Source: Candidatus Magasanikiibacteriota bacterium
GTDB lineage: Bacteria > Patescibacteriota > Patescibacteriia > Magasanikbacterales > GWA2-37-8
Direction: 5' to 3'
Length of the DNA: 64,000 bases
Assembly: GCA_041665405.1 (NCBI GenBank)
Contig: JBAYIZ010000006.1
Span: forward strand, 407-64,406
The position numbers were made by a program, and so were the translations under genes. Below, one piece after another: positions 9,555 through 63,736 of this stretch (position 1 is its first letter; every line of letters begins with the position of its first letter). The notes beneath the pieces are model-generated. The model was not told the origin of the DNA, searched no databases, and saw nothing but the letters and a program-made list of their open reading frames with translations.

Positions 9555-10769
9555 TTAAAAATTTATAAATTCTTTAAACCTATCTTCAAAAATAGCTTGC
9601 CGTGCCTGACGCATAAGCTCCAACATAAAATGCACATTATGGATGGTAGCCAAACGCAAACCAGTAATTTCTTGTGCTACAAATAAATGGTGTAAATAAG
9701 CGCGAGAATAATTTTTGCAAGTTGAACAAGCGCAGTCTTTACTAATTGGAGAAAAATCTTTGATAAACGCGGAGTTTTTTATATTCAAACGACGTTTCGG
9801 GTCCTCGGCAGTCGTAACAAACAACATACCGTGTCGAGCCAAACGAGTTGGTGCTACACAATCAAACATATCCGCACCACCAGCTACCACTTTGAGCAAA
9901 TCCTCTGGATCCAAACCGACACCCATAGTGTATCGTGGCTTATCTTTTGGTAATAATGGAGTAATCCAATCCAAAATATTTTTGGTAGCTTCCATGTTGT
10001 AGCCAATGCTTTCACCGCCAATTGCGATACCATCAAAATCTAAACTGGCAATATATTTAGCCGATTCTTTGCGCAGATCTTCATGATTGGCACCCTGAAT
10101 AATACCAAATAAAAATTGTTTGTATTCTTTCGGCACTGTCATCCCCGACTTGATCGGGGATCTATCATCACTAGATTCCCGCTTCTGCGGGAATGACAAA
10201 CGCTTATGTTCGTCCACACATCTTTTTGCCCAGCGATGAGTGCGATCCATAGCTTCCTTTGTATATTTATAATCTGCATCATCAGGGGTACATTCATCAA
10301 AAGCCATAATAATATCCGCACCAATCTTGTGTTGGCACAAAGTAGCGGACTCTGGTGTAAAACGATGAGTAGAGCCGTCAATATGAGATTGAAATGTCAC
10401 GCCGTCTTCATCTATTTTTACCAATTTACCTTGATCTTTGGTGTCGCTTTTTTCTTTTTGCAATCCTAATGAAAAAACCTGAAAACCACCAGAATCAGTC
10501 AAAATCGCCCGGTCCCAATTCATAAATTTGTGCAAACCACCAGATTGAGCAACCAAATCTTCACCCGGTCTCAAATGCAAATGATAGTTATTGGCCAAGA
10601 TAATTTTTGGGTCCAAAATAGCTAGGTCGTTTTGATCTAGGGTTTTAACTGTGGCCTGTGTGCCAACTGGCATAAAGACCGGAGTTTCAATATCTCCATG
10701 GTCGGTATGCAAAATACCGGCTCTGGCACCAGTTTTTTTATCTTCGTGGATTAGTTCAAAAAATGACAT
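9555..10769 (-). CDS. tgt: tRNA-guanine transglycosylase (queuine tRNA-ribosyltransferase) carrying a 20-aa in-frame repeat-derived insert
   Basis: Tgt hallmarks are present: TPVFMPVGT, LTDSGGFQV, and the zinc site CxCxxC...H (CACSTCKNYSRAYLHH). Confidence 0.93.
   Translation of the reverse strand: MSFFELIHEDKKTGARAGILHTDHGDIETPVFMPVGTQATVKTLDQNDLAILDPKIILANNYHLHLRPGEDLVAQSGGLHKFMNWDRAILTDSGGFQVFSLGLQKEKSDTKDQGKLVKIDEDGVTFQSHIDGSTHRFTPESATLCQHKIGADIIMAFDECTPDDADYKYTKEAMDRTHRWAKRCVDEHKRLSFPQKRESSDDRSPIKSGMTVPKEYKQFLFGIIQGANHEDLRKESAKYIASLDFDGIAIGGESIGYNMEATKNILDWITPLLPKDKPRYTMGVGLDPEDLLKVVAGGADMFDCVAPTRLARHGMLFVTTAEDPKRRLNIKNSAFIKDFSPISKDCACSTCKNYSRAYLHHLFVAQEITGLRLATIHNVHFMLELMRQARQAIFEDRFKEFINF
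10138..10197. repeat. double-hairpin palindromic mini-element (ATTCCCG family) inside tgt
   Basis: Sequence GTCATCCCCGActtgATCGGGGAT...ATTCCCGCttctGCGGGAATGAC is exactly 60 nt. On the minus strand it is translated as SFPQKRESSDDRSPIKSGMT. Confidence 0.8.
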
Positions 10770-11006
10770 ACTAATTATATTTAAGCCAATACTACGCTAT
10801 TTTGCACAAAAAATCAAGACAAACAAAAAACTTCCTATAAGAAGAAGTTTTTTCTATTCTCATGTCGTTAACAACAACAGGAAAATGGATGCCTGCTTTT
10901 TTGTACCGTGAGCGCAGGCGAATCTCACATATTTTCCTTGCGGCGACTAGCCACGCATTAATCACATGCGCAACTTATCAAGCCGAATTGTGTTGGTACG
11001 GCGCGA

Positions 11007-11420
11007 TCAGCGCGCCTTGGGGGCGGCTGCTTCTCGCAGTTCGGCCAGCTTCCTGTCTACCTTTGGGGTGCCGAGGTGTTGCTTGGCCGCGAACACGAGC
11101 TTTGCGCGGGCAGATTGCACCGCCCTGTTCGAAGGACGACGGCCGGGTGGAGTCAAAGCCACCACCGCCTGCAACATTGCCTCCGTCGTCTGCTCGTCAC
11201 CCTGCTTGTACTCCCTGAGCGTGAACAGGACCTTCTCCACCTTCTCGTGGAGATCCCAGGACTCGCGCCAATACGGCCTGTCTTCGCCGGAATGGAACTT
11301 GTCGAGCATGGAGTGAGCCCTCCTCGACCTGAAGTAGCAAAGGACCAACACAAGCATCGACACGATGTTCACCGCAACACTGATACTGTGCCACATAGAA
11401 ATCCCCACTTCCTTCACCAT
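11007..11420 (-). CDS. small single-pass membrane protein encoded in G+C-rich islet 1
   Basis: The frame has G/C-rich third positions. It has an N-terminal TM segment (ISMWHSISVAVNIVSMLVLVLCYF) and a helical charged tail. The start could be ATG 11420, or ATG 11396 (preceded by AAGGAAGTGG). The track start at 11486 is probably an over-extension. Confidence 0.5.
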   Translation of the reverse strand: MVKEVGISMWHSISVAVNIVSMLVLVLCYFRSRRAHSMLDKFHSGEDRPYWRESWDLHEKVEKVLFTLREYKQGDEQTTEAMLQAVVALTPPGRRPSNRAVQSARAKLVFAAKQHLGTPKVDRKLAELREAAAPKAR

Positions 11421-11678: not shown

Positions 11679-13715
11679 ATGATAAATTTTGAACAAGAAC
11701 TCAACCCGCAACAGCTGGACGTCGTGAAAAATGGCGACGGGCCTTGTTTGGTTTTAGCTGGGGCGGGATCGGGGAAAACTCGCACTATTACTTATCGGGT
11801 TGCCTATTTGTTGGAACAAGGTGTTGGCCCAGAAAATATTTTGTTGGTAACTTTTACCAATCGAGCGGCGAATGAAATGATTGAACGGGTAAGAAATTTG
11901 ATGAGTGGGGATTCCCGTTTGCACGGGAATGACATGCCGTGGTCAGGAACATTTCACCACATTGCCAATAAAATTTTACGACACTACGCACCACATTTAG
12001 GATACAAAAATAATTTTACTGTTTTGGATTCCGACGACAGCCAGGCGTTGATAAAATTGTGTATCAAAGAATTTAAAACCACCGAAAAATTTCCTTCGGC
12101 GAAAGTTGTGGGCGCAATTATTAGTTTTGCTCGTAATTCTCAAAAAAGTATTGAAGAAGTAATTGAAGATAAATTTAATAGCTGGTGGCACCTGTCTAGA
12201 ACTATTGGCGATGTCAGCTCACGATACGAACAAAAGAAAAAAGAATCCAACGCAATGGATTTTGATGATCTACTAATTAATTTTGCATTGTTATTAAACA
12301 CCCCAGCAATTCAAGAAAAGTTTTCCAATCAATTCAAATATATTTTGGTAGATGAGTATCAAGACACCAACAAACTACAAGCGAATATTATTGATAAATT
12401 AGCCAAAATACACCGTAATTTGTTGGTAGTTGGTGATGACGCCCAAAGTATTTATTCTTTCCGTGCGGCTGATATAAAAAATATTTTAAATTTTGAAGAA
12501 AAATATTCTGATGCGAAAATTTTTCGTTTGGAAATAAATTATCGTTCTCACCAAGAAATTTTGTCTTTGGCCAATAATGTTATCGCCAACAATCGTCATC
12601 AATATCCAAAAAAATTAAAAGCAGTAAAAGAAAATGGCATAAAACCAAATTTATATCCAAAAAATGATCAATCCGACGAAGCGAGTTTTATTGTAAAAAA
12701 AATAAATGAACTGATTGAACAAGGAACTCCAGAACACAAAATCGCTGTGCTGTTTCGTGCCGCTCATCATTCTCAAATGCTCGAAATGGAATTAGCCAAA
12801 GCAGGAATCGCTTATGATTATCGTGGCGGTTTGCGATTTTTTGAACGCGCTCACATCAAAGATGTTTTGAGTTATCTCAGAATATTAAATAATTTATCTG
12901 ACACCTCTGCGTGGTTGCGTATTCTCCAACACGAAGAAGGAATCGGACCGTCGGCTGCCAATAAAATTATTTCTGCCGTGCAAAAACTAGAAAAAATTGA
13001 TGACATAAAAAATCTTGGGGAAGTTTTAGGTGGAAAAACCCAAACCGGTTTTAATAATTTCTTAAAAATTTTTAATGCTCTCTTGGAATCGTATATTCCA
13101 GAAAGCAGCCCTGGTGATTTAATCCAATCCATTATCAGTTCGAATTATAGCGACTATTTGGAAGCAGAATTCATAGATAGTGATGACCGAAAAAAGGATT
13201 TGGAACAAATGGCCACCTTTGCCACCAAACACAAAAATTTATCTGATTTTTTGGCCGAATCTAGTTTGCAAGAGTCGTTTGCCCACCCGACATCCAACCA
13301 AACACAGACAAACAACCAAAAAAGGTTGGTGCTTTCCACTATTCATCAGGCCAAAGGACTGGAGTGGGAAGCGGTTTTTATAATCAATGTAGCCAACGAC
13401 GCCTTTCCCAACAGTCGTGCTTTGGCCGAAAGTGAAGGTCTGGAAGAAGAACGCCGTTTGTTTTATGTCGCTATTACTCGTGCCAAAAAACACTTAATTT
13501 TGACTTATCCAATGTCAAATGAGGGTTGGGGCTCCTCGCTGGGCGGTCCAAGCTTGTTTTTGTCTGAAATTAGCCAAGATTTGATTGATGACCACTCATT
13601 ATTATCCTATAAAAGCACTGTTTTTGATAAAAATGAAGAAATTCAATATATTAACGAAGATGAACCAATAAATATCCAACCTGGTAGTTTTTTGCGCAGT
13701 ATTGATGACTTATAA
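11679..13715 (+). CDS. UvrD/PcrA/Rep-family ATP-dependent DNA helicase
   Basis: Walker A motif (AGAGSGKTRT), motif Ia (TFTNRAANEM), DEYQDT, motif VI (VAITRAKK). Confidence 0.92.
   Translation: MINFEQELNPQQLDVVKNGDGPCLVLAGAGSGKTRTITYRVAYLLEQGVGPENILLVTFTNRAANEMIERVRNLMSGDSRLHGNDMPWSGTFHHIANKILRHYAPHLGYKNNFTVLDSDDSQALIKLCIKEFKTTEKFPSAKVVGAIISFARNSQKSIEEVIEDKFNSWWHLSRTIGDVSSRYEQKKKESNAMDFDDLLINFALLLNTPAIQEKFSNQFKYILVDEYQDTNKLQANIIDKLAKIHRNLLVVGDDAQSIYSFRAADIKNILNFEEKYSDAKIFRLEINYRSHQEILSLANNVIANNRHQYPKKLKAVKENGIKPNLYPKNDQSDEASFIVKKINELIEQGTPEHKIAVLFRAAHHSQMLEMELAKAGIAYDYRGGLRFFERAHIKDVLSYLRILNNLSDTSAWLRILQHEEGIGPSAANKIISAVQKLEKIDDIKNLGEVLGGKTQTGFNNFLKIFNALLESYIPESSPGDLIQSIISSNYSDYLEAEFIDSDDRKKDLEQMATFATKHKNLSDFLAESSLQESFAHPTSNQTQTNNQKRLVLSTIHQAKGLEWEAVFIINVANDAFPNSRALAESEGLEEERRLFYVAITRAKKHLILTYPMSNEGWGSSLGGPSLFLSEISQDLIDDHSLLSYKSTVFDKNEEIQYINEDEPINIQPGSFLRSIDDL
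11911..11933. repeat. ATTCCCG palindromic mini-element inside the helicase gene
   Basis: ATTCCCGTttgcACGGGAATGAC, translated as (G)DSRLHGND between helicase motifs Ia and Ib. Confidence 0.7.
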
Positions 13716-23159: not shown

Positions 23160-23348
23160 CTCCACAAACAAAAACATCCCGACTAAATCGAGATGTTTTA
23201 TTTTTAAAGCGTTTATATCACTCGCACAATCTGAAAACAAATTTTATTTTCAAATTGCGCGGCGAGTGACATCTACCGCGTCTGCCCCACCGCCCGCTTG
23301 TAGCGAGTGGGGCTACGATGGCTAGTCTCTACAAATTAGCCCTTCCAT

Positions 23349-23822
23349 CTAGAAGGTGCCCGCCCCCAAGGCGAGTTGGACCTCCCATCCGAAGGAGTTC
23401 TTCTCCACGACGTCCTGTTGCCAGCCGACAGGGGCTTTCAGGAAAACGCGGGCACGCCACAGCTTCATACTGACCATCGGACCAGCCCCGTACAACAGCC
23501 CGTCGTTGCCCTTCTGTCCAGAAAGGACCCCGCCGAAGTTGAACGTGAGCCCATCAACGATCACGTCATAGGTGACGCCGTAGGCCATGCCGTAGCCCGA
23601 TACTTGGGTCGGAACCCAGAACTGGGCGAAGTGGGTCGTGTGACCATCCGGCTGGACCAAGTAGAGGCCCATGCCGATGTCGGTGCCGTCCTCAAACCCG
23701 GCGTGTTGCACGAACAGGCCGGCCCCACCAGTCTCCGGACCAGGACCCTCAGCCAGGGCGACTGAAGGAACTGCGAAAAGGACGACGCTCACGATGACGA
23801 AAAACCACGCGATGTGCTTCAT
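23349..23822 (-). CDS. secreted small beta-barrel-like (OMP-like) protein encoded in G+C-rich islet 2
   Basis: ATG 23822 is preceded by GGAG at 7 nt. Signal peptide is MKHIAWFFVIVSVVLFAVPSVALA|EG. It has Gly/aromatic-rich alternating strands and a C-terminal ...LALGAGTF. Third codon positions are G/C-rich. The track start at 23957 lies in the AT-rich leader and is probably spurious. Confidence 0.6.
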   Translation of the reverse strand: MKHIAWFFVIVSVVLFAVPSVALAEGPGPETGGAGLFVQHAGFEDGTDIGMGLYLVQPDGHTTHFAQFWVPTQVSGYGMAYGVTYDVIVDGLTFNFGGVLSGQKGNDGLLYGAGPMVSMKLWRARVFLKAPVGWQQDVVEKNSFGWEVQLALGAGTF

Positions 23823-23994
23823 GGATTTACTCCGAAAACTAGAGTTCATCGGTACCCAGCCGACACACCACGCGACAATCATTGTCGAGAGGTAAGGGTG
23901 ATTATTTATTCCTATATACATTAGAAATACATAATTTCCTTTACCTCTTTGAGACATTATTTATCCATTATAATTTAAAAAGAACTAACTGAAC

Positions 23995-25146: not shown

Positions 25147-25154
25147 AAATTCCG

Positions 25155-25240
25155 CAAAGGGTAACTTTTTCGCTTTTTTTGCCCGCGAGGGCAAAAGGAT
25201 GAGCCTCGGCTCATAACCCGCTCAAAAGTAACCCTTTGCT
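25155..25240 (+). ncRNA. candidate structured RNA / terminator-embedded repeat, copy 1
   Basis: Outer stem is GCAAAGGGT.../...ACCCTTTGC. It encloses the conserved core TTTTTCGCTTTTTTTGCCCGCGAGGGCAAAAGGATGAGCCTCGGCTCATAACCCGCTCAAAAG. Related copies are at 38645 and 48340. Confidence 0.5.
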
Positions 25241-25266
25241 CCATTTTAAATTAACATAACAAACTT

Positions 25267-35047: not shown

Positions 35048-36172
35048 TTATTGTCTTATCGGCATCACTATATAAACAAAACTGTCGTCGTTGGTTGGTA
35101 CAAAGAGACACGGGCTGTCTGCGTTTATCATTTTCAGCATACTGGTTTCTGATTTAATATTATTTAAACCATCCAAAACATATCGGTGGTTCAACATAAT
35201 AGCATTGTCGTCGCCGTTTGTTTCCGCACTTATTTCAGAACTATATTCACCCGTCTGGGAAGAAGTGGAGGAAAGTTTTACGACGCCTTCTTTACTACTA
35301 ATTATACAAGATATAGCGTTTACACCTATTGTGGTAAACAAACTGGCCATTTTAATTTCTTTACTCATCTTTCCAGTATCAAACATCGCAGATGTTTTGA
35401 ATTCTTTTGGTATAATTTGTGCATAGTCTGGATAATTTCCTTCTACTAAGCGAGAAACTAGTTGAATATTACCGTAGTGCATAGCAATTTGATTCTCTCC
35501 AACTAATATTCTAACGTTTTTTTCTTTTTCTTCATTATCCGCTAACGACAGTATGTGGATTATTTCTTGAGCAGTTCTACCCGGAACAATAATTTTAAAA
35601 TCTCCTTCTCCTTGTTGAATTTTAATTTTCTTTTCAGCCAATCTATAACTATCTGTAGCCGCCAATATTAAACCGGCATAATATGAAGTATTAAATCCAA
35701 AATACATTCCTGATAATTCCGGTCTTATTTCTGATTTAGCCAAAGAGGAAACAGTTTGTCCTAGTCCGCTCTTTAGTTGTTCTGCATCAAACAAAAATCC
35801 ATTTCCATCACTTACAGAAGGAATAACTGGAAATTCGTCAGCTGGTATTCCTTTTATTTTCGTTGATGATTTTCCACAGGTTATAACTAGCTCATTTTCT
35901 TTTAATTCCATTTCAATCTTTTCGTCAGAAAGTAAACTAACAAATTCACTAAGTGTTTTGGAAGGAACTGTAAACGAACCAGATTCATCCACTTTTGATC
36001 TCACGTGAGCAACTATTGCCAATTCTAGATTGGTTGCAATTATTTCTGTTTTTTGATCATCTGCTTTAATCAATATATTTCCCAGTATTGGAAGATTCAC
36101 ATTTTTATTTGCTATCCCTCCTACTATAGAAAGTGCTTTCGATAAATTATCTTTTGTACAAGTTATTTTCAT
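35048..36172 (-). CDS. dnaN: DNA polymerase III beta sliding clamp
   Basis: 374 aa, three-domain clamp pattern, located downstream of dnaA. Confidence 0.92.
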   Translation of the reverse strand: MKITCTKDNLSKALSIVGGIANKNVNLPILGNILIKADDQKTEIIATNLELAIVAHVRSKVDESGSFTVPSKTLSEFVSLLSDEKIEMELKENELVITCGKSSTKIKGIPADEFPVIPSVSDGNGFLFDAEQLKSGLGQTVSSLAKSEIRPELSGMYFGFNTSYYAGLILAATDSYRLAEKKIKIQQGEGDFKIIVPGRTAQEIIHILSLADNEEKEKNVRILVGENQIAMHYGNIQLVSRLVEGNYPDYAQIIPKEFKTSAMFDTGKMSKEIKMASLFTTIGVNAISCIISSKEGVVKLSSTSSQTGEYSSEISAETNGDDNAIMLNHRYVLDGLNNIKSETSMLKMINADSPCLFVPTNDDSFVYIVMPIRQ

Positions 36173-36447
36173 AAAGGATGGTGCGGGTTACATTATTTAA
36201 TTAAGTATATATATAAAATAATAATAGTAATAAGGCTGTGGAAAGGGTTAATAAGTCGTTTTTTGTTTTCAAATTAGCCAAGTTTAAGGTGAATAATTTT
36301 TTAACAGTTTGGTATAAAAGTGTGTGTGAAAAACGATTTATTTAAGTTTATTTATTTTCTGTTGATAAGTGGTTGACTTGTTCTTTTTATATTAACAACT
36401 TATTAACATTCTTTGCACACCATTTAGCGAAGAAAAAAAACCATGTT
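36173..36447. other. oriC candidate, part 1 (dnaA-dnaN spacer): AT-rich unwinding region plus degenerate DnaA boxes
   Basis: 275-nt noncoding spacer. AT-only tract at 36205-36232. TGTTGATAA (36360-68, 8/9 match to TGTGGATAA) and TGTGGAAAG (36237-45). Confidence 0.55.
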
Positions 36448-37842
36448 TTAGATATTATTGATATATAAACGCTGTCTTATTAATTCTAGTTCTTGTTTTA
36501 GTTTTAAATCATTATCTATTTCTTTGGTAATTTTTTCGTTGGCATGCATCGCTGTGGTGTGATCGCGTCCGCCCAGCTCATCGCCAATGGAAGGGAAAGA
36601 CATTTTAAGATCATTACGCAAAATATACATAATAATCTGGCGAGGATAAGAGAGCTTCTTTTCTCGGCTTTTACCACAAACATTTTCGGTGGAAACATTG
36701 AAAAAGGTGCAAACAGTCTCTATGGTCTGTTGTGATGTGACTGAACGTCTAGCCGAAGCAGAATCAAAACTAGAAAGAATTGATTTTACTGATTCGGCTG
36801 TCGGGGCCATATTTTTTAATTGATGATAAGCAATAATTTTATTTAGGGCGCCTTCAAGCTCACGAATGTTGCTCTGAACAATAGTAGCAACTGTATTTAG
36901 GGTTTTGTCGTCCAAAACAAAATTCTTTTCTTGGCACTTTTTGCCCAAAATAGCGACACGTGTTTCAAAATCAGGGGCAGAAACATCCACAATCATTCCC
37001 CACTCGAAGCGAGATTTGAGGCGATCCTCAAGGGCAGGGATGGCTTTTGGTGGGCGGTCAGAAGTTAAAATTACCTGCTTGTTTGCCTGGTGGAGCTCGT
37101 TAAAAGTATGAAAAAACGATTCTTGGCTGGCATCTTTGCCAGCGATGAACTGAATATCATCAATTAACAAAGCGTCGATAGTACGATAGCGGTTTTGGAA
37201 GTCTCTCGCTCCACCACTACGCAAAGAAGTAATAAAATCGTTGGTAAATTTCTCAGCACTAACATACAAGATATTGGTTTGAGGGTTTTTTTTCAACAAT
37301 TCATTGCCAACCGCCTGTAAAAGATGGGTTTTCCCCAAACCTACACCACCGTAGATAAACAGTGGATTGTAGGCCTCACCAGGACGGTCTGCCACTGCCT
37401 TGGCGGCGGTGAAAGCCAATTCGGAGCCTTTGCCAACCACAAAACTATCAAAATTGTATTTTGGGTTAATGGTAAATCCATGAGAAGCGACAGATTGGTG
37501 ACTAGTTTGTTGAGAGTATGAAGGTGTTTTTTCGTTTTCATGAGATACCGACGGGGAAGGAGGGGTGTTTATTGGTTGTTCCACAACATTTTTGATATTT
37601 TCGATCTTGTATTCCATCCTTCTAATAGGAAGGGCGGTGACCCTCTCTAAAGATTGGATGATTTGGTGGTGGTGTTTTTTTTCAATCCACGCCTGATTAA
37701 AGGTGTTTGGGACGCAGACAATAACATGGCCTTCTTGAAAACTAACAATACCAGTATTTTTGAACCAGGTGTTAAAATTCGCTTTGGAAATGGTTAATTC
37801 TAATTCAGATAAAACAGCCTGCCAAATTTCATTATTAGTCAT
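36448..37842 (-). CDS. dnaA: chromosomal replication initiator DnaA
   Basis: AAA+ Walker A GGVGLGKTHL, a sensor region, and the C-terminal DnaA signature (GGRDHTTAMHA). Confidence 0.96.
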   Translation of the reverse strand: MTNNEIWQAVLSELELTISKANFNTWFKNTGIVSFQEGHVIVCVPNTFNQAWIEKKHHHQIIQSLERVTALPIRRMEYKIENIKNVVEQPINTPPSPSVSHENEKTPSYSQQTSHQSVASHGFTINPKYNFDSFVVGKGSELAFTAAKAVADRPGEAYNPLFIYGGVGLGKTHLLQAVGNELLKKNPQTNILYVSAEKFTNDFITSLRSGGARDFQNRYRTIDALLIDDIQFIAGKDASQESFFHTFNELHQANKQVILTSDRPPKAIPALEDRLKSRFEWGMIVDVSAPDFETRVAILGKKCQEKNFVLDDKTLNTVATIVQSNIRELEGALNKIIAYHQLKNMAPTAESVKSILSSFDSASARRSVTSQQTIETVCTFFNVSTENVCGKSREKKLSYPRQIIMYILRNDLKMSFPSIGDELGGRDHTTAMHANEKITKEIDNDLKLKQELELIRQRLYINNI

Positions 37843-38017
37843 AGATTGATAGTTTTATAAAACTTTTATGTTATTTTAGCACAGAAACACATCTATTAAA
37901 ACGTCGGAAATTAGCTAAAAGTGCAAAATATGTGGATAAACTGGGGATACTGTGGATTGTTGACTAAAAGCCGTTTATATGGTAATATATTCAACATAAT
38001 ACATTAAATAAAAAGGT
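37843..38017. other. oriC candidate, part 2 / dnaA promoter region with DnaA boxes
   Basis: Perfect TGTGGATAA at 37931-37939 and TGTGGATTG at 37951-37959. Confidence 0.6.
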
Positions 38018-38197
38018 ATGGCAACTAAACGAACTTATCAACCAAGTAAAAAACATCGTGCAAAAGCACACGGATTCATGGAAAGAATGTCCACAAAGAA
38101 TGGACGGACAGTACTTTCTAGACGTCGTGCCAAGGGGCGCAAGAAGCTAACAGTGTCAGATGAAAAATCTGGAAAATTGTTAAGAAAAGCCAAATAA
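38018..38197 (+). CDS. rpmH: 50S ribosomal protein L34 with a C-terminal extension
   Basis: My own translation: [59 protein letters not shown] (59 aa). It is below the track cutoff. A hairpin terminator follows at 38202-38227. Confidence 0.9.
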
Positions 38198-38245
38198 TCT
38201 TAAACCCCCGATTGAATCGGGGTTTTTATTTGGTATAATATTGTT

Positions 38246-38641
38246 ATGTATAGAAAAGAAAACCATTTGACCAAGGTGCGAGATTTCAATCTCGTTTTAA
38301 AACAAGGATATTGGATAAATGATCTGTTTTTTAGTTTAAAAGTATTAGACTTAGCCAAAAAAGAGGCTTATTTTCCACCCAAAGAAGATAAGGATAAGTT
38401 CAAAAAACAGCTTAAGTTAGCGGTGAATGTTGGGTTAAAGGTGTCTAAAAGTGCTGTTGTGCGCAATCGGGCAAAAAGGCAGGTTGTGGAGGTGTTGAGG
38501 GCGATGATGGCCAAAGATGAAATATTGGAAGGGTATTATTTGTTTTTTGTGGCGAAGCCGAATATCAAGGAGAAAAGTTTTGCTGAGATAAGCGATGAAG
38601 TGAAACTATTATTGCAAAAGGCAAACGTGCTAAAGAGGTAA
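38246..38641 (+). CDS. rnpA: ribonuclease P protein component
   Basis: Position after rpmH. The RNR motif context is present (VVRNRAKRQVVEVLR). Confidence 0.85.
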   Translation: MYRKENHLTKVRDFNLVLKQGYWINDLFFSLKVLDLAKKEAYFPPKEDKDKFKKQLKLAVNVGLKVSKSAVVRNRAKRQVVEVLRAMMAKDEILEGYYLFFVAKPNIKEKSFAEISDEVKLLLQKANVLKR

Positions 38642-38644
38642 TTT

Positions 38645-38739
38645 AAAAAACTTTTATTTTATTTCGCTTTTTTTGCCCGCGAGGGCAAAAGGATGAAGCC
38701 GCGGCTTCATAACCCGCTCAATTAAAATAAAAGTTTTTT
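38645..38739 (+). ncRNA. candidate structured RNA / terminator-embedded repeat, copy 2
   Basis: A 17-bp outer stem (AAAAAACTTTTATTTTA/TAAAATAAAAGTTTTTT) encloses the core TTTCGCTTTTTTTGCCCGCGAGGGCAAAAGGATGAAGCCGCGGCTTCATAACCCGCTCAA. Confidence 0.5.
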
Positions 38740-38744
38740 AAATT

Positions 38745-39020
38745 ATGCCTAAAAACCTTCTTTATTACATTAAACAAGCAACTATATTTTTGGGAATGCC
38801 GATTGTTTTTTTGATTTGGGTTTATCAAAAAACATTTTCGCCGGATCATGGGCCGTTGAAAAGATTTTTTCCTTATGGGTATTGTCGGTTTTATCCTAGT
38901 TGTAGTGAATATGGAAAACAATCTATAAAAAAACACGGCCTGTTTGTTGGAACAATCAAGGCCGGGTGGAGATTGCTAAGATGTAATCCATGGAATAAAG
39001 GGGGGATGGATTTGCCGTGA
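38745..39020 (+). CDS. yidD: membrane protein insertion efficiency factor YidD
   Basis: YQKTFSP...CRFYPSCSEYGKQSIKKHG...G...RLLRCNPW is the canonical YidD pattern. Confidence 0.9.
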   Translation: MPKNLLYYIKQATIFLGMPIVFLIWVYQKTFSPDHGPLKRFFPYGYCRFYPSCSEYGKQSIKKHGLFVGTIKAGWRLLRCNPWNKGGMDLP

Positions 39021-44271: not shown

Positions 44272-44529
44272 GTGGCCAGGTCGTGTTATATAGACACAGC
44301 CTCGGCGACTATAGCGAAAGAGGGGAAACCATGGCGCGAGCCAAACCGGCAACGGACACGTGTTGAGGTACATGTTCGATTCCAGTTCAACCTCAGGCCG
44401 CAACAACGGGCTGAGGAGGCCACGCAGAAGGCCAAGAAGTGGCAGAGGGACAACCCGGGCTGGGGCTGTGATCCCAACCCCACGACGATCGGCAACGGCT
44501 ACGCTACCTTCAGGGCTCGTCGCACCTGA
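44272..44529 (+). pseudogene. G+C-rich islet 3 ORF with unresolved start (possibly frameshifted or a gene fragment)
   Basis: G/C-rich third positions mark this frame from about 44380 to TGA 44527-29 (...QQRAEEATQKAKKWQRDNPGWGCDPNPTTIGNGYATFRARRT). The only SD+ATG (GAGGGG-N6-ATG 44331) is in another frame and stops after 11 codons. The in-frame candidates are GTG 44272, or the AT-rich extension at 44149. Confidence 0.3.
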
Positions 44530-44660
44530 CGACGATCAACCTCTTCGACGCACACCCCCAGTCGAGCACAAGTTGCTCCTGGGGGCGGGGCTTAGATGAA
44601 ATTATCCTTCCTGTCCTAAGTAGAAAAAATATTTTCTTTTTAGGACAAGGATAATTTCTT

Positions 44661-44707: not shown

Positions 44708-44731
44708 GATTCCCGCTTTCGCGGGAATGAC
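44708..44731. repeat. ATTCCCG palindromic mini-element, intergenic
   Basis: GATTCCCGCtttcGCGGGAATGAC, about 20 nt from the hppA stop. Confidence 0.75.
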
Positions 44732-48241: not shown

Positions 48242-48312
48242 GGTACCGTTGCCAAGCAGTAAGGCAGAGCTCTGCAAAAGCTCTATGCGTGGGTGCAATT
48301 CCCACCGGTACC
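48242..48312 (+). tRNA. tRNA-Cys (anticodon GCA)
   Basis: Acceptor stem GGTACCG/CGGTACC, anticodon stem GAGCT/AGCTC with loop CU-GCA-AA, T-arm GTGGG-TGCAATT-CCCAC. A TTGACT-16-TATTAT promoter lies upstream. Confidence 0.85.
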
Positions 48313-48339
48313 TCGAAATAGCAGTAGTGCTGTAGAACA

Positions 48340-48437
48340 AACATCCCAGACAATGACTTTTTCGCTTTTTTCGACCGCGAGGTCGAAAGGATGAGCCTCG
48401 GCTCATAACCCGCTCAAAAGTAATTGTCTGGGATGTT
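48340..48437 (+). ncRNA. candidate structured RNA / terminator-embedded repeat, copy 3
   Basis: A 15-bp perfect outer stem (AACATCCCAGACAAT/ATTGTCTGGGATGTT) is followed by a T7 run. It encloses the core TTTTTCGCTTTTTTCGACCGCGAGGTCGAAAGGATGAGCCTCGGCTCATAACCCGCTCAAAAG. Confidence 0.55.
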
Positions 48438-48453
48438 TTTTTGTACCATAAAA

Positions 48454-48482
48454 TTGACTTTGTGTTTTTTATCAAGTAAAAT
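48454..48482 (+). promoter_or_regulatory. sigma70-type promoter reading into G+C-rich islet 4
   Basis: TTGACT-17 nt-TAAAAT. The composition switches to G+C-rich about 6 nt downstream. Confidence 0.6.
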
Positions 48483-48576
48483 ATTTTTGTGTCCCAAACG
48501 ACCGACGGTTCGCCGTTCGGTCACAACGACCACTTGCACCGCTCATCGGTGGTGGTCTCGAAAAGGAGAGAGAGCC

Positions 48577-48798
48577 ATGCGTGTGCTTCCCTCGATCCTG
48601 AACCAGAGCCGGAGACGGAGCGACAATTCCGCCGATTGCGGGCAGGTCGCGAGCTCCGAGGCCGACTTCATCCACAGGCAACTGCTCGAGCATGGCTTCT
48701 GCTCGGACATGAAGGAGGGCGCCGTCGGCACCGCCAACATGGTCGGCATCGTCTGTTCGACCGCGGCCGGCCGCGGAGCAGTAGTCCTCCTGGTGTAG
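48577..48798 (+). CDS. 73-aa protein of unknown function encoded in G+C-rich islet 4
   Basis: AAGGAG sits 8 nt before the ATG. By my codon-by-codon read, G/C at codon position 3 is very high in this frame only. Sequence: MRVLPSILNQSRRRSDNSADCGQVASSEADFIHRQLLEHGFCSDMKEGAVGTANMVGIVCSTAAGRGAVVLLV. Confidence 0.55.
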   Translation: MRVLPSILNQSRRRSDNSADCGQVASSEADFIHRQLLEHGFCSDMKEGAVGTANMVGIVCSTAAGRGAVVLLV

Positions 48799-48827
48799 GG
48801 CTCAGCTTCGTACGAGACAACCAGTGC

Positions 48828-48881
48828 GGCCGGACCGGGAGCTCCTTCGGGGGTTTCTGGTCCGGCCGTCGTTTCCTTTTT
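48828..48881 (+). terminator. GC-rich hairpin terminator after the islet 4 ORF
   Basis: GGCCGGACC...GGTCCGGCC (9 bp), followed by gtcgTTTCCTTTTTATT. Confidence 0.55.
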
Positions 48882-48962
48882 ATTATATTTAATACTCAAA
48901 GCGGGTATTTTTTTATTGCTCAAAAAAGGGTTTGCGTGTAAAATAAGAACGAATAATATTTT

Positions 48963-59948: not shown

Positions 59949-61118
59949 ATGCTGATAAAAGACCTCCAATCTATCGGTTTTACCAAGAATCTATCTGAGG
60001 TTTATTTGTCTTTAGCCCAATTGGGAGGCCAGGCCAAAGCTGGGGAAATCATCAAAAAGACAGGTTTACACCGAAATATCGTTTATATTTGTTTAGACAA
60101 ACTAATAGAAAAGCAATTATTAACTAAAACCGAAGAACGCGGTGTTACTATTTATAAAACACTAGATCCAGCCCGACTAATGAATGAAATTCGAGAAAAA
60201 GAACAATTAACAACAAATATTATTGAAGAAATTGAAGCATTAAAAAAGCATCCAGACACTCAAGAAATAATTGTCCACGAAGGTTTGGAAGGTTTTAGAA
60301 ATTTCAATCTCTATACTTTGAAAAAAATCGAAGAAGGTGGCACATTGCAAGTGCTTGGTTCCATTGGAGATAAATGGTTTGAATACATGGGTGAAGAAAA
60401 GTACAAAGAATATATAAAAATACAAAACAAGAAAAAAATTAAGTGGGAGATGATTACTTATTTTGATTCAAAACGCGACAAACAATTTATTAATGACTAT
60501 CCAGAATTATGCGAGGTAAAATTATTACCGCAGACATATGATAATCCGGCCAGCATTTATATTTTTGGAGATACAATTTCAATAAATATTTTTACCGAAC
60601 CATTTTCGGTGATTGAAATAAAAAATCGCGCGGTGGCGGATGTATATAGAAATTATTTTAGTTTGTTGTGGAACCAAGAAGTGTTTACCTATCGCGGTTG
60701 GGATGCGATTGATAAAATTTTGTGTGCGAATTTGGAAGATGGATTTACTTATGATGTTTTTGGGGCAACATATGGTGTGGGTACAAAAGAGGAACAAGAT
60801 CGCGTGTTGGAATTTTTTATGGAGAACCACAGAAAGACCGCACACTTTAAACCAAATAGACGATTGATATTTTTTGAACAAGATCGTGAGCAGGCGGCTA
60901 AAGAAGTTTCTCCGTTGGATGCAGACACTCGTAAAAATGTTCGTTTGCGTTTTCTGTCAGACAAATATTTTTCGCCGATGGAGACACATTTGTTTAAAGA
61001 TAAAGTAATTTTAATTTTTTCTTTTGGCGAACCAATCGCGACAGTTTATACCAATCCAAAAATAATTGAAGTTTACAAAAAACAATTTGAGTTGTGGTGG
61101 GGGATGTCGGTGGAATAA
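59949..61118 (+). CDS. TrmB-like wHTH regulator with a large C-terminal domain (paralog 2)
   Basis: N-terminus LQSIGFTKNLSEVYLSLAQLGGQAKAGEIIKKTGLHRNIVYICLDKLIEKQLL. It shares GLHRN(I/L)VY and (L/F)WNQE with paralog 3. Confidence 0.75.
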   Translation: MLIKDLQSIGFTKNLSEVYLSLAQLGGQAKAGEIIKKTGLHRNIVYICLDKLIEKQLLTKTEERGVTIYKTLDPARLMNEIREKEQLTTNIIEEIEALKKHPDTQEIIVHEGLEGFRNFNLYTLKKIEEGGTLQVLGSIGDKWFEYMGEEKYKEYIKIQNKKKIKWEMITYFDSKRDKQFINDYPELCEVKLLPQTYDNPASIYIFGDTISINIFTEPFSVIEIKNRAVADVYRNYFSLLWNQEVFTYRGWDAIDKILCANLEDGFTYDVFGATYGVGTKEEQDRVLEFFMENHRKTAHFKPNRRLIFFEQDREQAAKEVSPLDADTRKNVRLRFLSDKYFSPMETHLFKDKVILIFSFGEPIATVYTNPKIIEVYKKQFELWWGMSVE

Positions 61119-61128
61119 AATTTAAAAA

Positions 61129-61162
61129 CAAAAAACCGATTGCAGATTGCAGTCGGTTTTTT
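61129..61162 (+). terminator. conserved TrmB-module terminator (copy 2)
   Basis: AAAAAACCGATTGCagatTGCAGTCGGTTTTTTG. Confidence 0.8.
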
Positions 61163-61308
61163 GATAACTTCTTGAGCTCAACAAGATGTTGGAGTGAATG
61201 AGCGGTCACTACCAGCCGCGTGACTTTTTGTTTTACCGGTAGTCACAAACCGGATGATCCCAGACCCCTCATCAGCGGACCATTGAATTGTCCTGAAACT
61301 TTGCACCT

Positions 61309-61707
61309 CTACGCCTGTTCGCGACAGGGCAGGCATTCGTAGCCCACCCAAAGGCCGTTGGCAAAGGTGAAGTCGAAGTCCCAGCGGTTGTCACCACCGT
61401 ACCAGCAGAGGCTGGCAGTGTATTTGAATCCATTGGGGGCGAGAAGAGTGGTGCCAGTGAGCACGATCTTCTTCTTACGCATTTTCATCGGAATCTGGTC
61501 TTGGTGGTCAAGCAGTTGCTGGCCGTCACGCACTCCAAGGACGCCATTCCGACGACGTGCGCGTTCGCGCAATTCGGAGCCCTTGATGCATTCCTCGCCA
61601 CGCTTGAGGCACGACTCGATCCGGAGCTTGTTGATGTGAAGATCTGCAATTGGATCACAGTCTTCCACAACCTTAAACTCCACCCTGTTCCAAACGAATG
61701 TATTCAC
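61309..61707 (-). CDS. 132-aa cytoplasmic protein of unknown function encoded in G+C-rich islet 5
   Basis: The GTG start is preceded by AAGGAGG at 6 nt. The frame is open across the whole G+C-rich segment. No signal peptide and no family recognised. Confidence 0.6.
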   Translation of the reverse strand: MNTFVWNRVEFKVVEDCDPIADLHINKLRIESCLKRGEECIKGSELRERARRRNGVLGVRDGQQLLDHQDQIPMKMRKKKIVLTGTTLLAPNGFKYTASLCWYGGDNRWDFDFTFANGLWVGYECLPCREQA

Positions 61708-61918: not shown

Positions 61919-63031
61919 ATGTTAGAACAAAAACTAGAAAAACTTGGTTTTGGAAAAAACGAAGTGAAAGTATATCTAGCTCTTTTTGATTTGGGTAAAT
62001 GTAAAGCCAAACAAATCATTGATAACACAGGTCTTCATCGTAATCTTGTCTACACGGCACTTGATGATTTGATTGGAAAGAAATTAATTTCAAAAGTCGA
62101 GAGTAATGGAATTTTTTTATTTTGGGTTAATAGCCCTGAACTTTTGAACGAAATAATAGAAGAAAAAGCTATAACGGCAAAAGAAGTGATTGAACAATTA
62201 AAAAAGAAAAGCGCCAGTCAACCTCGTGAGATATTAATTTATGAAGGTGAAGAGGGTGTGAAGAAAAGTCGCACCAAAGTTTTAACATATGGAAAAGGAG
62301 ATACATTTTATATGTTAGGAACAAAAGCGAGTTTCTCGCCTTCGATGGAAAAATTTTCAAAGGAGTTTGATTCGCTAAGAATTAAAAAGGGAATTTATTC
62401 AAAAATTTTAGTCGAACATGATGTGAATAAAGATGAACTTAAACATCTTAATAAAATGCCACTTAGTGAAGCCAAGCACCTTCCTCTTGATTTGGAAATG
62501 CCTATTTGGTTTTCAGTTATTCAAGATTATTTGGAAATTGGCATCCCAGGCGTTGATCCACTGATTTTTTCGATAAAAAATAAAGCGGTGGCTGGGGCAA
62601 TAAAAAAATTTATAGATTTTTTCTGGAATCAAGAATCCGAAGTTGTTACAGGCGCAAAGGCTTTACAAGAGATTATGTTGGAATCCATTGATTATGGTGA
62701 GTTGAAAGGTATCGGCGCAAAAGGCAATTTTTTTGAAAATTATCCGGGATTTTTTAATGATATAAAAAAGCGAGCAGTAATGAAACAAGGACTGGTCTGG
62801 AGAAACATTGTTGATCCAAGTATGAAAGGGCATGAGATTACAAAATTTTTGTGGACTAAAACAAAATATAATTTATCCGATACAAAAAATCCCAATGTTG
62901 TTTGGTTGTATGGCCCGAAAGCTGTGATTATAAATTGGGCGGATAAAGAACCTGTGATGTTTGTTTCTACAAATAAGGCGCTAGTGCAAAGTTATAATGA
63001 TTATTTTGAGGAGATGTGGGGTAAAGATTAA
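61919..63031 (+). CDS. TrmB-like wHTH regulator with a large C-terminal domain (paralog 3)
   Basis: N-terminus MLEQKLEKLGFGKNEVKVYLALFDLGKCKAKQIIDNTGLHRNLVYTALDDLIGKKLI. Confidence 0.75.
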   Translation: MLEQKLEKLGFGKNEVKVYLALFDLGKCKAKQIIDNTGLHRNLVYTALDDLIGKKLISKVESNGIFLFWVNSPELLNEIIEEKAITAKEVIEQLKKKSASQPREILIYEGEEGVKKSRTKVLTYGKGDTFYMLGTKASFSPSMEKFSKEFDSLRIKKGIYSKILVEHDVNKDELKHLNKMPLSEAKHLPLDLEMPIWFSVIQDYLEIGIPGVDPLIFSIKNKAVAGAIKKFIDFFWNQESEVVTGAKALQEIMLESIDYGELKGIGAKGNFFENYPGFFNDIKKRAVMKQGLVWRNIVDPSMKGHEITKFLWTKTKYNLSDTKNPNVVWLYGPKAVIINWADKEPVMFVSTNKALVQSYNDYFEEMWGKD

Positions 63032-63041
63032 CACTAAGAAC

Positions 63042-63075
63042 AAAAAACCGATTGCGATATGCAGTCGGTTTTTTA
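63042..63075 (+). terminator. conserved TrmB-module terminator (copy 3)
   Basis: AAAAAACCGATTGCgataTGCAGTCGGTTTTTTA. Confidence 0.8.
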
Positions 63076-63168
63076 ATTACTTCTTGAACCAAAATGATTT
63101 AGTTCGAAAAGTAGCTGCGCGTCTTTTTGACCGGGACGCGCAACCGGGTGAGAGGGTGGAACCGGACG

Positions 63169-63660
63169 TCACAGGAATGCGATTCCCAGTGACGGCTGGA
63201 ACAGCAACGAGTAATCGCCGCCATCCAGGGTCTTCGCCAGTCCAAATGCCATGGACAGCGACAGACCGTTTCCGATTCCGTAGGCCAGGCCGGTGCCCAG
63301 ACCAACCAAGTCGGAAGACGGCTTGCCGCCGTAACCGACATTGCGCTGGTAGAGCACGCTGGCCTGGGTGGACCAACGATCAGTCAGTCCCAGCGACACA
63401 CCTGCAGAGAGGCGTGGGCTGGGCTTGCAACTGTCGTTGGGGGTGGCCAGCCCGATTCCGCCCGCGATGGACACCTTGTTGGAGACCTTCTCCGACAGCG
63501 AGATGTCGTAGCGGGTGGAGGCCGAGGCGGGGGTGAGCCCGTCCTTCAGGAGGACGACGTAGCCCTCCCGGATGTTGAAGACCGGGGTCAGGGCGCTGGC
63601 CGAAGCCGAGACACCGCTCAGAACCACGGCCACCAGGACGATCAGGGTGGAGATCTTCAT
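63169..63660 (-). CDS. secreted small beta-barrel-like (OMP-like) protein encoded in G+C-rich islet 6
   Basis: GAGGTG lies 4 nt before the ATG. Signal peptide is MKISTLIVLVAVVLSGVSASASA|L. The protein has Gly-rich alternating strands and a C-terminal ...QPSLGIAFL. Confidence 0.6.
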   Translation of the reverse strand: MKISTLIVLVAVVLSGVSASASALTPVFNIREGYVVLLKDGLTPASASTRYDISLSEKVSNKVSIAGGIGLATPNDSCKPSPRLSAGVSLGLTDRWSTQASVLYQRNVGYGGKPSSDLVGLGTGLAYGIGNGLSLSMAFGLAKTLDGGDYSLLFQPSLGIAFL

Positions 63661-63736
63661 GGGACACCTCTGCAGACCAGAAGGCCTGCCATCTGCATTA
63701 GTCAGTCAGGTTGCATTTGCGAACCCATACTGCTTT

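Follow-up and report, generated by a model that had tools for sequence, protein, structure and literature searches.

How does a G+C-rich mini-gene come to lie between tRNA-Cys and polA on a chromosome of 38% GC, and which of its parts are being preserved? The locus belongs to a 64-kb stretch of a Candidatus Magasanikbacteria chromosome, which was analysed as a whole and is called the window here. The gene content of the window is that of a housekeeping region (dnaA/dnaN, rpsL-rpsG-fusA and pilus genes by Pfam). The Pfam scan covered 48 window ORFs, comprising 47 host ORFs of 90 aa or longer and one overlapping 126-aa ORF, while polA and an M23 peptidase gene were identified apart from it; no phage hallmark genes were found by Pfam among the 47 host ORFs. 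The window contains six islets of similar build, and the one between tRNA-Cys (48242-48314) and polA (starting at 48963), hereafter islet 4, had been described in a sequence-only reading as a complete and separate expression unit of foreign composition.

Anatomy of islet 4

Relative to the empty site of its relatives, islet 4 is an insert of 472 nt (48443..48914; + strand, as are the other features of this section). Its left junction is a T7 run at 48436..48442, which is the terminator end of a structured repeat element of ~107 nt (48336..48441) located between tRNA-Cys and islet 4, and its 3' end is a second T7 run at 48908-48914. The edges are sharp, because the GC content jumps from 22% in the 5' flank to 61% in the leader, 65% in the ORF and 69% in the 3'UTR, and falls back to 24% in the 3' flank. 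In 100-nt windows, GC is 0.60-0.68 across ~48500-48850, compared with ~0.38 for the whole window. All parts of the expression unit that the sequence-only reading had listed were found, and their composition is indeed alien to this genome.

A predicted sigma-70-type promoter, TTGACT-17-TAAAAT (48454..48482), lies within host-like A+T-rich DNA and scored 10/12 matches in the consensus scan. Three promoter-like sites were detected in the islet-4 region versus 0.9 +/- 1.0 in shuffled sequences, the second + strand site being the tRNA-Cys promoter. The polA promoter (TTGCTC-17-TAAAAT, 48916..48944) is outside the insert and is kept in 9/9 aligned relatives; that the cassette promoter is a duplicate of it was considered and rejected, as the spacers are unrelated. 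The G+C-rich 5' leader (48489..48576) is predicted to fold into two hairpins, the first at 48500-48522 (GACCGACGG/UUCG/CCGUUCGGUC) and the second at 48528-48557 (GACCAC..CACCG/CUCAU/CGGUG-GUGGUC), followed by the Shine-Dalgarno (SD) motif AAGGAG (48563-48568), 8 nt before the ATG at 48577. The ORF (48577..48798; NCBI locus tag WCV83_02480; MRVLPSIL...GAVVLLV*) has the expected 73 codons, and its GC content by codon position is 0.63/0.48/0.85. Its third positions, earlier described as nearly all G or C, are so in 62/73 codons.

Downstream, a terminator hairpin with a 20-bp stem and a UUCG loop (48826-48869) was identified by folding and by a terminator scan. It had been noticed before as a GC hairpin plus T-tract, with the stem underestimated at 9 bp. 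The hairpin has a folding energy of -42.7 kcal/mol and z = -4.6 on the + strand, with the U-tail CGTTTCCTTT; owing to the many G.U pairs in the stem, the - strand reaches a z of just -0.5. The T-rich terminator tail (TTTCCTTTTTATT, 48872..48884) is followed by a degenerate second hairpin with a T7 run (48891..48914), directly 5' of the polA promoter. Islet 4 has a 13-nt pair at its two ends (48496/48862); nothing comparable was seen elsewhere, and it was treated as chance. A MazF-type "ACA-less mRNA" idea was also rejected, since the transcript would contain several ACA.

The insertion site and a diverged ortholog

The tRNA-Cys to polA spacer was compared in relatives. Synteny could be followed in 16 genomes, of which seven have an occupied site and nine an empty one. 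In the empty relatives, the polA promoter comes straight after tRNA-Cys, or after the structured element where there is one, so that only a terminator and this promoter separate the two genes. One of them (L001) aligns with the window up to 48442 and resumes at 48907, with 8 nt of L001 matching both sides. In at least three relatives (L016, L003 and L065), the slot is filled by unrelated promoter-SD-small-ORF-terminator cassettes. A blastn search of 48443-48914 against all fetched loci matched only the window, L054 and L067, and islet 4 is single copy in the window and across these loci. Islet 4 is thus an insertion, and the slot between the tRNA-Cys-side terminator and the polA promoter is a variable hot spot. 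The T7 runs flanking the insert are ambiguous as a target-site duplication, both being terminator tails.

A diverged ortholog occupies the same site in L067, a relative from another metagenome, with homologous A+T-rich flanks on both sides. Its ORF (2664-2822, 52 codons) has a GC3 of 0.91, compared with 0.85 in islet 4. Because this ortholog occupies the equivalent position and its G+C is no lower, islet 4 is not a recent private acquisition; a relative with this ORF at similar G+C is what the sequence-only reading had named as refuting it. An ORF-less G+C-rich fragment adjoins the L067 copy. The -35 and -10 hexamers, the TGTGTC start region, the SD-ATG arrangement and the cores of both leader hairpins are all kept in L067, and both ORFs are open, with shared motifs in the same frame.

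The most conserved part is a 63-nt block (48809..48871), consisting of an unpaired 17-nt stretch, CGUACGAGACAACCAGU, and the 20-bp UUCG hairpin. It is identical to L067 at 61/63 positions, compared with 94.5% identity for tRNA-Cys, 88% for the 5' end of polA and about 72-76% for the M23 gene, and the unpaired 17 nt are 100% identical. L067 has no T-rich tail 3' of the same hairpin; there, an intact second hairpin (TACCCTAATTCAGGGTA) with a T7 run is the homologue of the degenerate one at 48891..48914. Judged by this comparison, the 3' RNA module (17 nt plus hairpin) is probably the part of islet 4 under the strongest constraint. When the window was searched for a site able to pair with the 17-nt stretch, only the stretch itself was recovered.

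The protein presents a different picture. Only 20/50 aligned residues (40%) are identical between the two products, and the substitutions are even over codon positions (23/22/24 of 50), which is no indication that selection acts on the protein; two members of the family are known, and the ORF middle may be partly non-homologous, which would weaken these counts. The N-termini differ in length and the C-terminus is frameshifted. The hydrophobic C-terminus (..GRGAVVLLV) highlighted earlier is present in islet 4, but it is not a conserved feature: it results from a 1-nt indel, by which the frame reads through the TAG used by L067. Three other frames at the ORF are likewise open, and the chance of a 73-codon ORF remaining open in DNA of 65% GC is ~1/6 by our estimate.

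No homologs of the 73-aa product were found in a word-indexed search of 5.8 billion proteins. A full HMMER search of 1.84 billion representatives returned only self-matches and three translated tandem repeats, which were rejected. Searches against Pfam (best sub-threshold hit C5HCH, E = 0.095), PDB sequences (sub-threshold only, prolyl 4-hydroxylase, E about 0.07-0.24), PHROGs and PADLOC gave no significant match; IMG/VR was negative both by peptide patterns and by a 28-nt 3' block, as was blastn of the islet-4 DNA against plasmids and phages. The AlphaFold model (pLDDT 52) was unfit for a fold search. These data suggest an orphan that evolves fast, with little if any purifying selection of the conventional type. 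Not much should be read into this protein; what is conserved and can be tested is the 3' RNA module.

Overall, we lean towards viewing islet 4 as a moron-like autonomous expression cassette, which would be drawn from a lineage-specific pool and combine a fast-evolving small protein with a constrained 3' RNA module. Its promoter would start a ~390-nt transcript near 48489, giving a G+C-rich RNA with the two-hairpin leader and then the SD-led ORF. The very stable UUCG hairpin would end and protect this RNA, so that the 3' module may act as an RNA stabiliser and terminator. It could also serve as a sequence-specific site, either as a 3'UTR-derived small RNA or as a protein-binding site.

Alternative explanations

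The explanation that survives best besides the autonomous cassette is a decaying remnant, i.e., a captured foreign small gene that drifts as a pseudogene and of which only the terminator is useful, insulating the polA promoter. The even change over codon positions, the low identity with indels and a frameshifted tail, and the lack of homologs in large protein searches all point this way, as does the fragment beside the L067 copy. Islet 3 of the window also looks frameshifted, as its SD-ATG frame stops after 11 codons and the GC3-rich frame is a different one. We still consider a remnant unlikely. Both ORFs have stayed open, and the promoter hexamers, start region, SD-ATG and leader hairpins have been kept while flanking synonymous sites differ by ~50%. 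Neutral drift at 38% GC should also have eroded the period-3 G+C pattern, which is intact in both orthologs, and a mere terminator has no need of 17 fully conserved unpaired nucleotides.

G+C-rich islands of A+T-rich genomes are classically structured RNAs, and in islet 4 conservation is concentrated in the leader hairpins and the 3' block, with the middle being most variable. This would be expected if the transcript itself were the product of a non-coding RNA gene, with structured 5' and 3' modules and an ORF incidental to the G+C-rich sequence. The whole predicted transcript folds better than its shuffles (z = -3.0); however, the single terminal hairpin supplies most of this score. Rfam 15 matched only tRNAs in the window, and even at E <= 10 nothing exceeded 20 bits in 48450-48890. 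Moreover, the strong period-3 signal (GC2 about 0.5, GC3 about 0.85-0.91) lies in the same frame in both orthologs together with a well-spaced SD-ATG, and purifying selection on the proteins of similarly built sister islets is clear. We therefore give a purely non-coding gene little credence.

The foreign composition and the tRNA gene that ends 129 nt upstream invite the idea, in line with the pointer of the sequence-only reading to tRNA 3' flanks as classic integration sites, of a recent integration at the tRNA-Cys 3' flank by a since-lost site-specific recombinase. The absence of an integrase and of an att-like duplicate, already noticed there, was confirmed: no integrase, transposase or reverse-transcriptase domain was found by Pfam in the 48 ORFs scanned across 64 kb, the insert encodes no recombinase (the 73-codon ORF is the sole one there), and no second copy of the 22-nt tRNA-Cys 3' end occurs in the window within three mismatches. 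The tRNA does not appear to be the target either, as the conserved structured element with its own terminator, which is present also at empty sites, intervenes. The junctions are T7 runs from terminators and contain no tRNA sequence, none of the five other islets is adjacent to a tRNA, tRNA-Ser at 752-837 has no islet beside it, and the L067 ortholog shows that the insert is old. Such an origin is highly improbable.

Equally hard to sustain is a type I toxin-antitoxin-like system, in which a small membrane-active peptide would come from a heavily structured mRNA under the control of an antisense RNA. Such a system would fit the small ORF, the length and structure of the leader and the stability of the 3' hairpin, and a weak minus-strand promoter-like site (48969->48940) is directed into the 3' end of the unit; but matches of this kind are common in A+T-rich DNA such as that around this site. 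The sole hydrophobic stretch is the lineage-specific frameshift product, which contains Arg and is absent from the L067 protein, and neither PADLOC nor Pfam gave a match. Finally, a chimera that joined G+C-rich reads of another organism into the contig, conceivable for a metagenome-assembled genome with an abrupt change in composition, is scarcely credible, given the JGI contig Ga0376277_0143043 with 100% identity over both junctions, the orthologous islet at the same site in another metagenome, the islet-6 family at equivalent sites in four other assemblies, and boundaries that, in all six islets of the window, fall at the promoter and the terminator.

Base composition, the cassette pool and known systems

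Atypical base composition is routinely taken as a mark of recent horizontal transfer, and the gain, loss and replacement of cassettes at the slot are as this reading expects. However, GC3 stays at 0.6-0.9 in the two orthologs and in an entire protein family, although the genes of the host genomes stand at 0.3, and it does so over a divergence that has half-saturated the host synonymous sites. In the L067 comparison, third positions differ at 48% in islet 4 and at 50% in the host M23 gene, and G<->C changes make up 14/24 of the third-position changes in islet 4 but 13/224 in the host. Third positions have turned over at the host synonymous rate and are still G or C; therefore, the composition is maintained rather than residual. 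For islet 6, 10 W>S and 6 S>W changes were counted in the lineage of the window. The high G+C of islet 4 thus appears to be kept up in situ and not to be the leftover of a recent transfer, and the persistence of cassette G+C appears to go beyond what ordinary gene transfer can explain.

The six islets are all intergenic, and the cassettes make up ~5% of the window. Five of the six have a well-formed SD-led ORF with a GC3 of 0.67-0.85 (0.24-0.44 in host ORFs of the window) and a consensus-type promoter with 9-11/12 matches, while islet 3 has, by eye, a weaker promoter, TTGCTT-17-TATATT. Cassettes of the same build occur in L009, L012, L016, L033 and L053. The islet-6 family is under purifying selection, with differences by codon position of 0.17/0.11/0.34, and retains a GC3 of 0.63-0.82 even at 28% amino-acid identity. 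These mini-gene cassettes form a G+C-rich pool that is specific to Magasanikbacteria, with six members here and many in relatives. Terminator/promoter junctions are where they are acquired, lost and swapped, with no recombinase gene of their own. In our searches of the literature, we met no account of islets like these in this phylum.

A bolder reading, which we put forward tentatively and hold to be doubtful as a whole, is that Magasanikbacteria, and perhaps other Patescibacteria, keep a cassette pool whose G+C is actively maintained and which moves without a dedicated recombinase, islet 4 being a case in which the RNA is constrained and the protein is free. The force proposed within this speculative reading is selection on RNA or DNA composition, or strongly biased gene conversion. 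If true, it would amount to a type of accessory-gene system not described before and to a counter-example to the amelioration rule for dating gene transfers. If confirmed, composition-based transfer dating fails in this lineage, and some local force, such as transcript selection or biased conversion at recombination hot spots, is required. For ultra-small bacteria that depend on a host, the cassettes also represent a concentrated supply of orphan genes. Some of them encode secreted 8-stranded barrels of the outer-membrane type; the phylum is generally regarded as lacking an outer membrane. Barrel-encoding cassettes would be candidate host-interaction factors.

Among known systems, islet 4 differs from IS elements and MITEs in being single copy, and the islets share no terminal inverted repeats. 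It resembles integron cassettes, which likewise form a large and diverse pool of single-gene units with small ORFs, orphans for the most part, and with an imperfect hairpin at the 3' end. In contrast to mostly promoterless integron cassettes, the islets have their own promoters and, with no intI, are dispersed singly at terminator/promoter junctions instead of in arrays; inspection of the 3' hairpin by eye showed no attC R'/R'' core (GTTRRRY). Like genomic islets and tRNA-linked islands, islet 4 is small, atypical in composition, absent from relatives and near a tRNA gene; unlike them, it has no integrase or att repeat, does not use the tRNA as a target, and is a single mini-gene of ~0.47 kb in a series recurring at six per 64 kb.

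Regarding the RNA, 3'UTR-derived small RNAs and terminator stem-loops that stabilise mRNA are an established concept in enterobacteria. The best-conserved part of islet 4 is similar, with an unpaired stretch leading into a strong terminator hairpin where the mRNA would end, but no target was found in the window and the L067 hairpin has no U-tract; we know of no Hfq or ProQ context in this phylum. No known RNA family in Rfam 15 is matched, and the 73-aa product matches no known protein family significantly (Pfam, NCBI/JGI clusters, PHROGs, PADLOC and PDB).

The phage moron of Hendrix and colleagues is an extra gene between neighbours that are adjacent in relatives, which has its own promoter and terminator, differs in composition and is borne by a phage or prophage (as quoted in PMC2920897). 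Islet 4 shares the single extra gene between genes adjacent in nine relatives, the predicted promoter and terminator of its own, the deviating composition (a body of 61-69% GC against flanks of 22-24%, and a GC3 of 0.85 against 0.24-0.44 in the host), one slot with different inserts in different genomes, as in an entry hot spot, and the patchy occurrence of the same insert across lineages. On the other hand, its carrier is a housekeeping chromosome (dnaA, the rpsL operon and polA) and not a phage or prophage. The islets are also far G+C-richer than their host, while many morons are A+T-richer than their carrier, and the composition of the islets persists over deep divergence instead of marking a recent arrival.

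A self-contained unit between tRNA-Cys and polA

The sequence-only reading had described a complete unit between tRNA-Cys (48242-48314) and polA (from 48963), and this observation of a self-contained unit was confirmed. Islet 4 comprises a promoter (TTGACT-17-TAAAAT, 48454-48482), a leader with two hairpins (48500-48522 and 48528-48557), an AAGGAG SD (48563-48568) 8 nt before the ATG at 48577, a 73-codon ORF (48577-48798; G+C by codon position 0.63/0.48/0.85), which is deposited as NCBI protein WCV83_02480 of a Candidatus Magasanikbacteria MAG, and a terminator hairpin (48826-48869) with a UUCG loop and a T-rich tail. The hairpin and T-tract noted earlier were thus present, with a stem of 20 bp instead of 9 bp. 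The G+C content is 22% in the 5' flank, 61% in the leader, 65% in the ORF, 69% in the 3'UTR and 24% in the 3' flank, and the sharp borders of the G+C-rich DNA fall where the transcript is predicted to start and end. Over 2860 nt, both junctions included, the window is matched at 100% identity by a JGI contig. A minus-strand promoter-like site (TTGACA-18-TATTTT, 48969 to 48940) overlaps the polA start codon and faces the islet-4 3' end; given the A+T-rich DNA, this match may be due to chance.

The window (38.4% G+C) is an ordinary chromosome region. A Pfam scan covering 47 host ORFs (90 aa or longer), with polA and the M23 peptidase gene identified separately, found dnaA, dnaN, rnpA, yidD, rpsL, rpsG, fusA, type IV pilus genes, UvrD, TGT, trigger factor and H+-PPase, but no integrase, transposase or reverse transcriptase. 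Since dnaN and dnaA are minus-strand genes and rnpA and yidD plus-strand genes (35048-39020), the window probably includes the region of the chromosomal replication origin.

Relatives were obtained via PolA from GTDB genomes and from metagenomes. tRNA-Cys stands directly upstream of polA in 16 genomes, window included, and this slot is empty in nine of them (L001, L002, L005, L006, L007, L012, L040, L055 and L060). The empty spacers measure 9-167 nt and consist of a terminator followed immediately by the conserved polA promoter TTGCTn-17-TAAAAT, the exceptions being the shortest, L006 and L055. Compared with L001, the window has 472 additional bases (48443-48914) with a T7 run at each end. Unrelated inserts occupy the slot in L016, L003 and L065, each with its own TTGAC-type promoter, SD, small ORF (45, 49 and about 100 codons, respectively) and terminator, the first two being G+C-rich; L017 and L020 also have longer spacers. 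This spacer comparison, which had been proposed earlier, shows islet 4 to be an insertion at a hot spot relative to the nine empty sites. The suggestion of integration at the tRNA 3' flank proved wrong: a structured element of ~107 nt, conserved in five relatives, parts tRNA-Cys from the insert, and a search of the window found no repeat of the tRNA-Cys 3' end. The earlier remark that no integrase or att-like tRNA duplicate is visible was upheld by the Pfam scan and this search, and a tRNA-targeted, integrase-borne island was rejected on these grounds.

Two kinds of repeats were also observed. A structured repeat of about 95-110 nt occurs at gene 3' ends, after tRNA-Cys (48336-48441) and in the rpsG/fusA (~25148-25245) and rnpA/yidD (~38648-38740) intervals, as well as after tRNA-Cys in L001, L016, L012, L040 and L007. 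Its conserved core is UUUCGCUUUUUU-[GCCC GCGA GGGC]-AAAGGAU-[GAGCC UC GGCUC]-AUAACCCGCUCAA, while the outer stem, about 20 bp long, is wholly different among copies, yet complementary, with compensatory changes at 23 of 38 pairs (RNAalifold). It has no Rfam match and is a candidate for a new RNA motif associated with terminators, or for an element of the MITE type. Three copies of the palindrome ATTCCCG-N6-CGGGAAT(GACA) are found in the window, with zero expected: two copies (10175-10194 and 11911-11930) lie within the TGT and UvrD reading frames, the genes flanking islet 1, and one (44709-44728) about 100 nt past islet 3. Two copies in L016 (5529-5556 and 5968-5995) bracket the cassette and the polA promoter. 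The palindrome is reminiscent of the palindromic elements of Rickettsia, which insert into genes.

A diverged ortholog and the coding status of islet 4

A diverged copy of islet 4 lies in the tRNA-Cys/polA slot of one metagenome contig, Ga0172379_10003814 (L067). Homology to the window extends to the A+T-rich flank at the promoter and to the terminator flank preceding the polA promoter, so the two copies occupy the same locus. The promoter hexamers and TGTGTC start region are kept around a diverged spacer, the leader is about 72% identical with two intact hairpin cores, the SD-ATG is kept, and the ORF is about 53-60% identical, with indels. The 63-nt 3' block (17 unpaired nt plus the 20-bp hairpin) is identical at 61 of 63 positions, compared with 94.5% for tRNA-Cys, 88% for the first 306 nt of polA and about 72-76% for the M23 peptidase gene. 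Folding of the terminal hairpin gave z = -4.6 on the plus strand versus -0.5 on the other; since it depends on G.U pairs, it would be stable only as plus-strand RNA.

The L067 ORF has 52 codons, and the two proteins share 20 of 50 aligned residues in matching frame, including the motifs ..E..FIHR.., ..GTA..V.. and ..ST.AA... Through a 1-nt indel, the window ORF leaves this frame just upstream of L067's TAG and ends in the tail GRGAVVLLV that the shift creates; three consecutive A-ending codons in that region suggest that the window's frame state is the derived one. The hydrophobic C-terminus stressed by the sequence-only reading is therefore a frameshift product, and the protein features it emphasized are not conserved between the two copies. 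Its view of a foreign unit held for a separately inserted unit of atypical G+C, whereas recency is contradicted by the L067 ortholog, with a GC3 of 0.91. Although L001, L002 and L016 are nearer to the window (79-81% flanking-gene nucleotide identity, against 76% for L067), they lack islet 4, and the distribution of the cassette is thus patchy. L067 does not have the structured element after tRNA-Cys; in its place, directly upstream of the ortholog, stands a further G+C-rich segment of about 170 nt (2330-2500; GC up to 0.70) with a terminator-like hairpin, in which no convincing ORF or promoter was found.

Coding is favoured by the well-placed SD-ATG conserved in both copies, by a strong period-3 composition in the identical frame, and by the sister islets, which are genuine genes. 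On the contrary, the changes between the copies spread evenly over codon positions (23/22/24), the protein is variable at its ends, about 17% of 73-codon frames would be open by chance at 65% G+C by our estimate, and three further frames of 73-150 codons are also open. The homology check on the 73-aa product detected no relative in protein collections, Pfam, IMG/VR, PHROGs, PADLOC or PDB, and its structure model was unreliable. Overall, islet 4 is probably translated, yielding a small protein that evolves fast, while its firmly constrained element is the 3' RNA block; taken alone, it is an orphan mini-gene.

The islet class and its composition

A 150-nt G+C scan of the window found six islets: 1 (~10907-11378, minus), 2 (~23256-23860, minus), 3 (~44281-44610, plus), 4 (~48492-48894, plus), 5 (~61220-61671, minus) and 6 (~63103-63729, minus). 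All six are intergenic, with strands independent of their neighbours, and those other than islet 4 have a GC of 0.56-0.62. Five of the six show the full build of promoter-like site (9-11/12 matches to consensus), leader (about 120-290 nt from -35 hexamer to start codon), SD and ORF (73-163 codons, GC3 0.67-0.85), and islets 1, 2, 5 and 6 among them hold small orphan ORFs (GC3 0.67-0.82). Host ORFs of the window have a GC3 of 0.24-0.44, with no intermediates. The same build is present in L009, L012, L016, L033 and L053. Pfam, PHROG and PADLOC gave no family for islets 1, 2, 3, 5 and 6 except a weak OMP_b-brl match for islet 6. Islet 2 (23349-23822) encodes an apparent secreted beta-rich protein with a terminal F. 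Islet 3 (44332-44529) has a weaker promoter (TTGCTT-17-TATATT, read by eye); its SD-led ATG at 44332 starts an 11-codon frame (MARAKPATDTC*), and the GC3-rich frame (0.8-0.93) ending at 44529 is another one, without its own start. Islet 3 is possibly a frameshifted, decaying cassette.

Some of the islets fall into families. The islet-6 ORF (63169-63660, minus) has homologs at differing genomic positions in L053 (643-1128), L016 (8801-9286), L001 (7712-8209) and L003 (9509-10006), and only six family members emerged when 5.8 billion proteins were searched with a profile. Differences by codon position (0.17/0.11/0.34) clearly point to a coding family under purifying selection, which is G+C-rich in every genome bearing a member. 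The product has a predicted signal peptide and an 8-stranded outer-membrane-type beta-barrel (AF2, pLDDT 76), with Ail, NspA, OmpA-TM, OprF-N and OmpX as top Foldseek matches, and the C-terminal residue is aromatic or hydrophobic (F or L) in four of five members. An outer membrane is generally held to be absent from this phylum. TrmB-family regulator paralogs precede islets 5 and 6 (59949-61118 and 61919-63031, respectively), islet 5 being divergent from the next TrmB-like gene, and a further gene lies beyond islet 6 at the window edge. Two copies of the bidirectional terminator AAAAAACCGAYTGC..GCAGTCGGTTTTTT are present (61130-61162 and 63042-63074), and the L053 homolog of islet 6 sits in the slot held by islet 5 in the window; this arrangement indicates cassette swapping or local duplication.

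Neutral drift at 38% G+C should have drawn the islet-4 third positions far toward A+T. Between the window and L067, third positions differ at 50% in the host M23 gene (43% within identical residues) and 48% in the islet-4 ORF; G-to-C or C-to-G exchanges make up 13 of 224 and 14 of 24 of these changes, respectively, and GC3 is 0.37/0.33 versus 0.85/0.91. In the islet-6 family, changes were polarised by parsimony with L016 as outgroup, and these small numbers gave ten A/T-to-G/C against six G/C-to-A/T third-position changes in the window lineage, where few sites are A/T, and 15 G/C-to-A/T against two in the L053 lineage. The family GC3 remains 0.63-0.82 down to 28% amino-acid identity. Unexpectedly, the islet composition thus appears to be maintained. 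A local force that keeps G+C high may be at work, for instance selection on the composition of transcripts or biased conversion at these loci, which are prone to exchange. The alternative is that diverged alleles are imported again and again from a G+C-rich reservoir as yet unseen, which is hard to square with both the homologous A+T-rich flanks of islet 4 and the lack of a donor homolog. It is the islet class and the persistence of its composition that merit follow-up.

Comparison with known systems

On membership criteria, islet 4 was rejected as an integron cassette, an IS/MITE and an Rfam RNA, and it is not readily recognisable as a toxin-antitoxin locus. Our literature search found no published description of such islets in Patescibacteria. 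The closest concept is the phage moron, defined in a passage of PMC2920897 as an extra gene that separates two genes otherwise adjacent, carries a promoter and terminator of its own, differs in G+C and enters at a hot spot. A moron resides in phage, whereas islet 4 does not, as judged from the window Pfam scan, phage DNA and PHROGs. Of the four defining features, islet 4 nevertheless shows three: it lies between genes adjacent in relatives, has its own predicted promoter and terminator, and differs in G+C from its surroundings.
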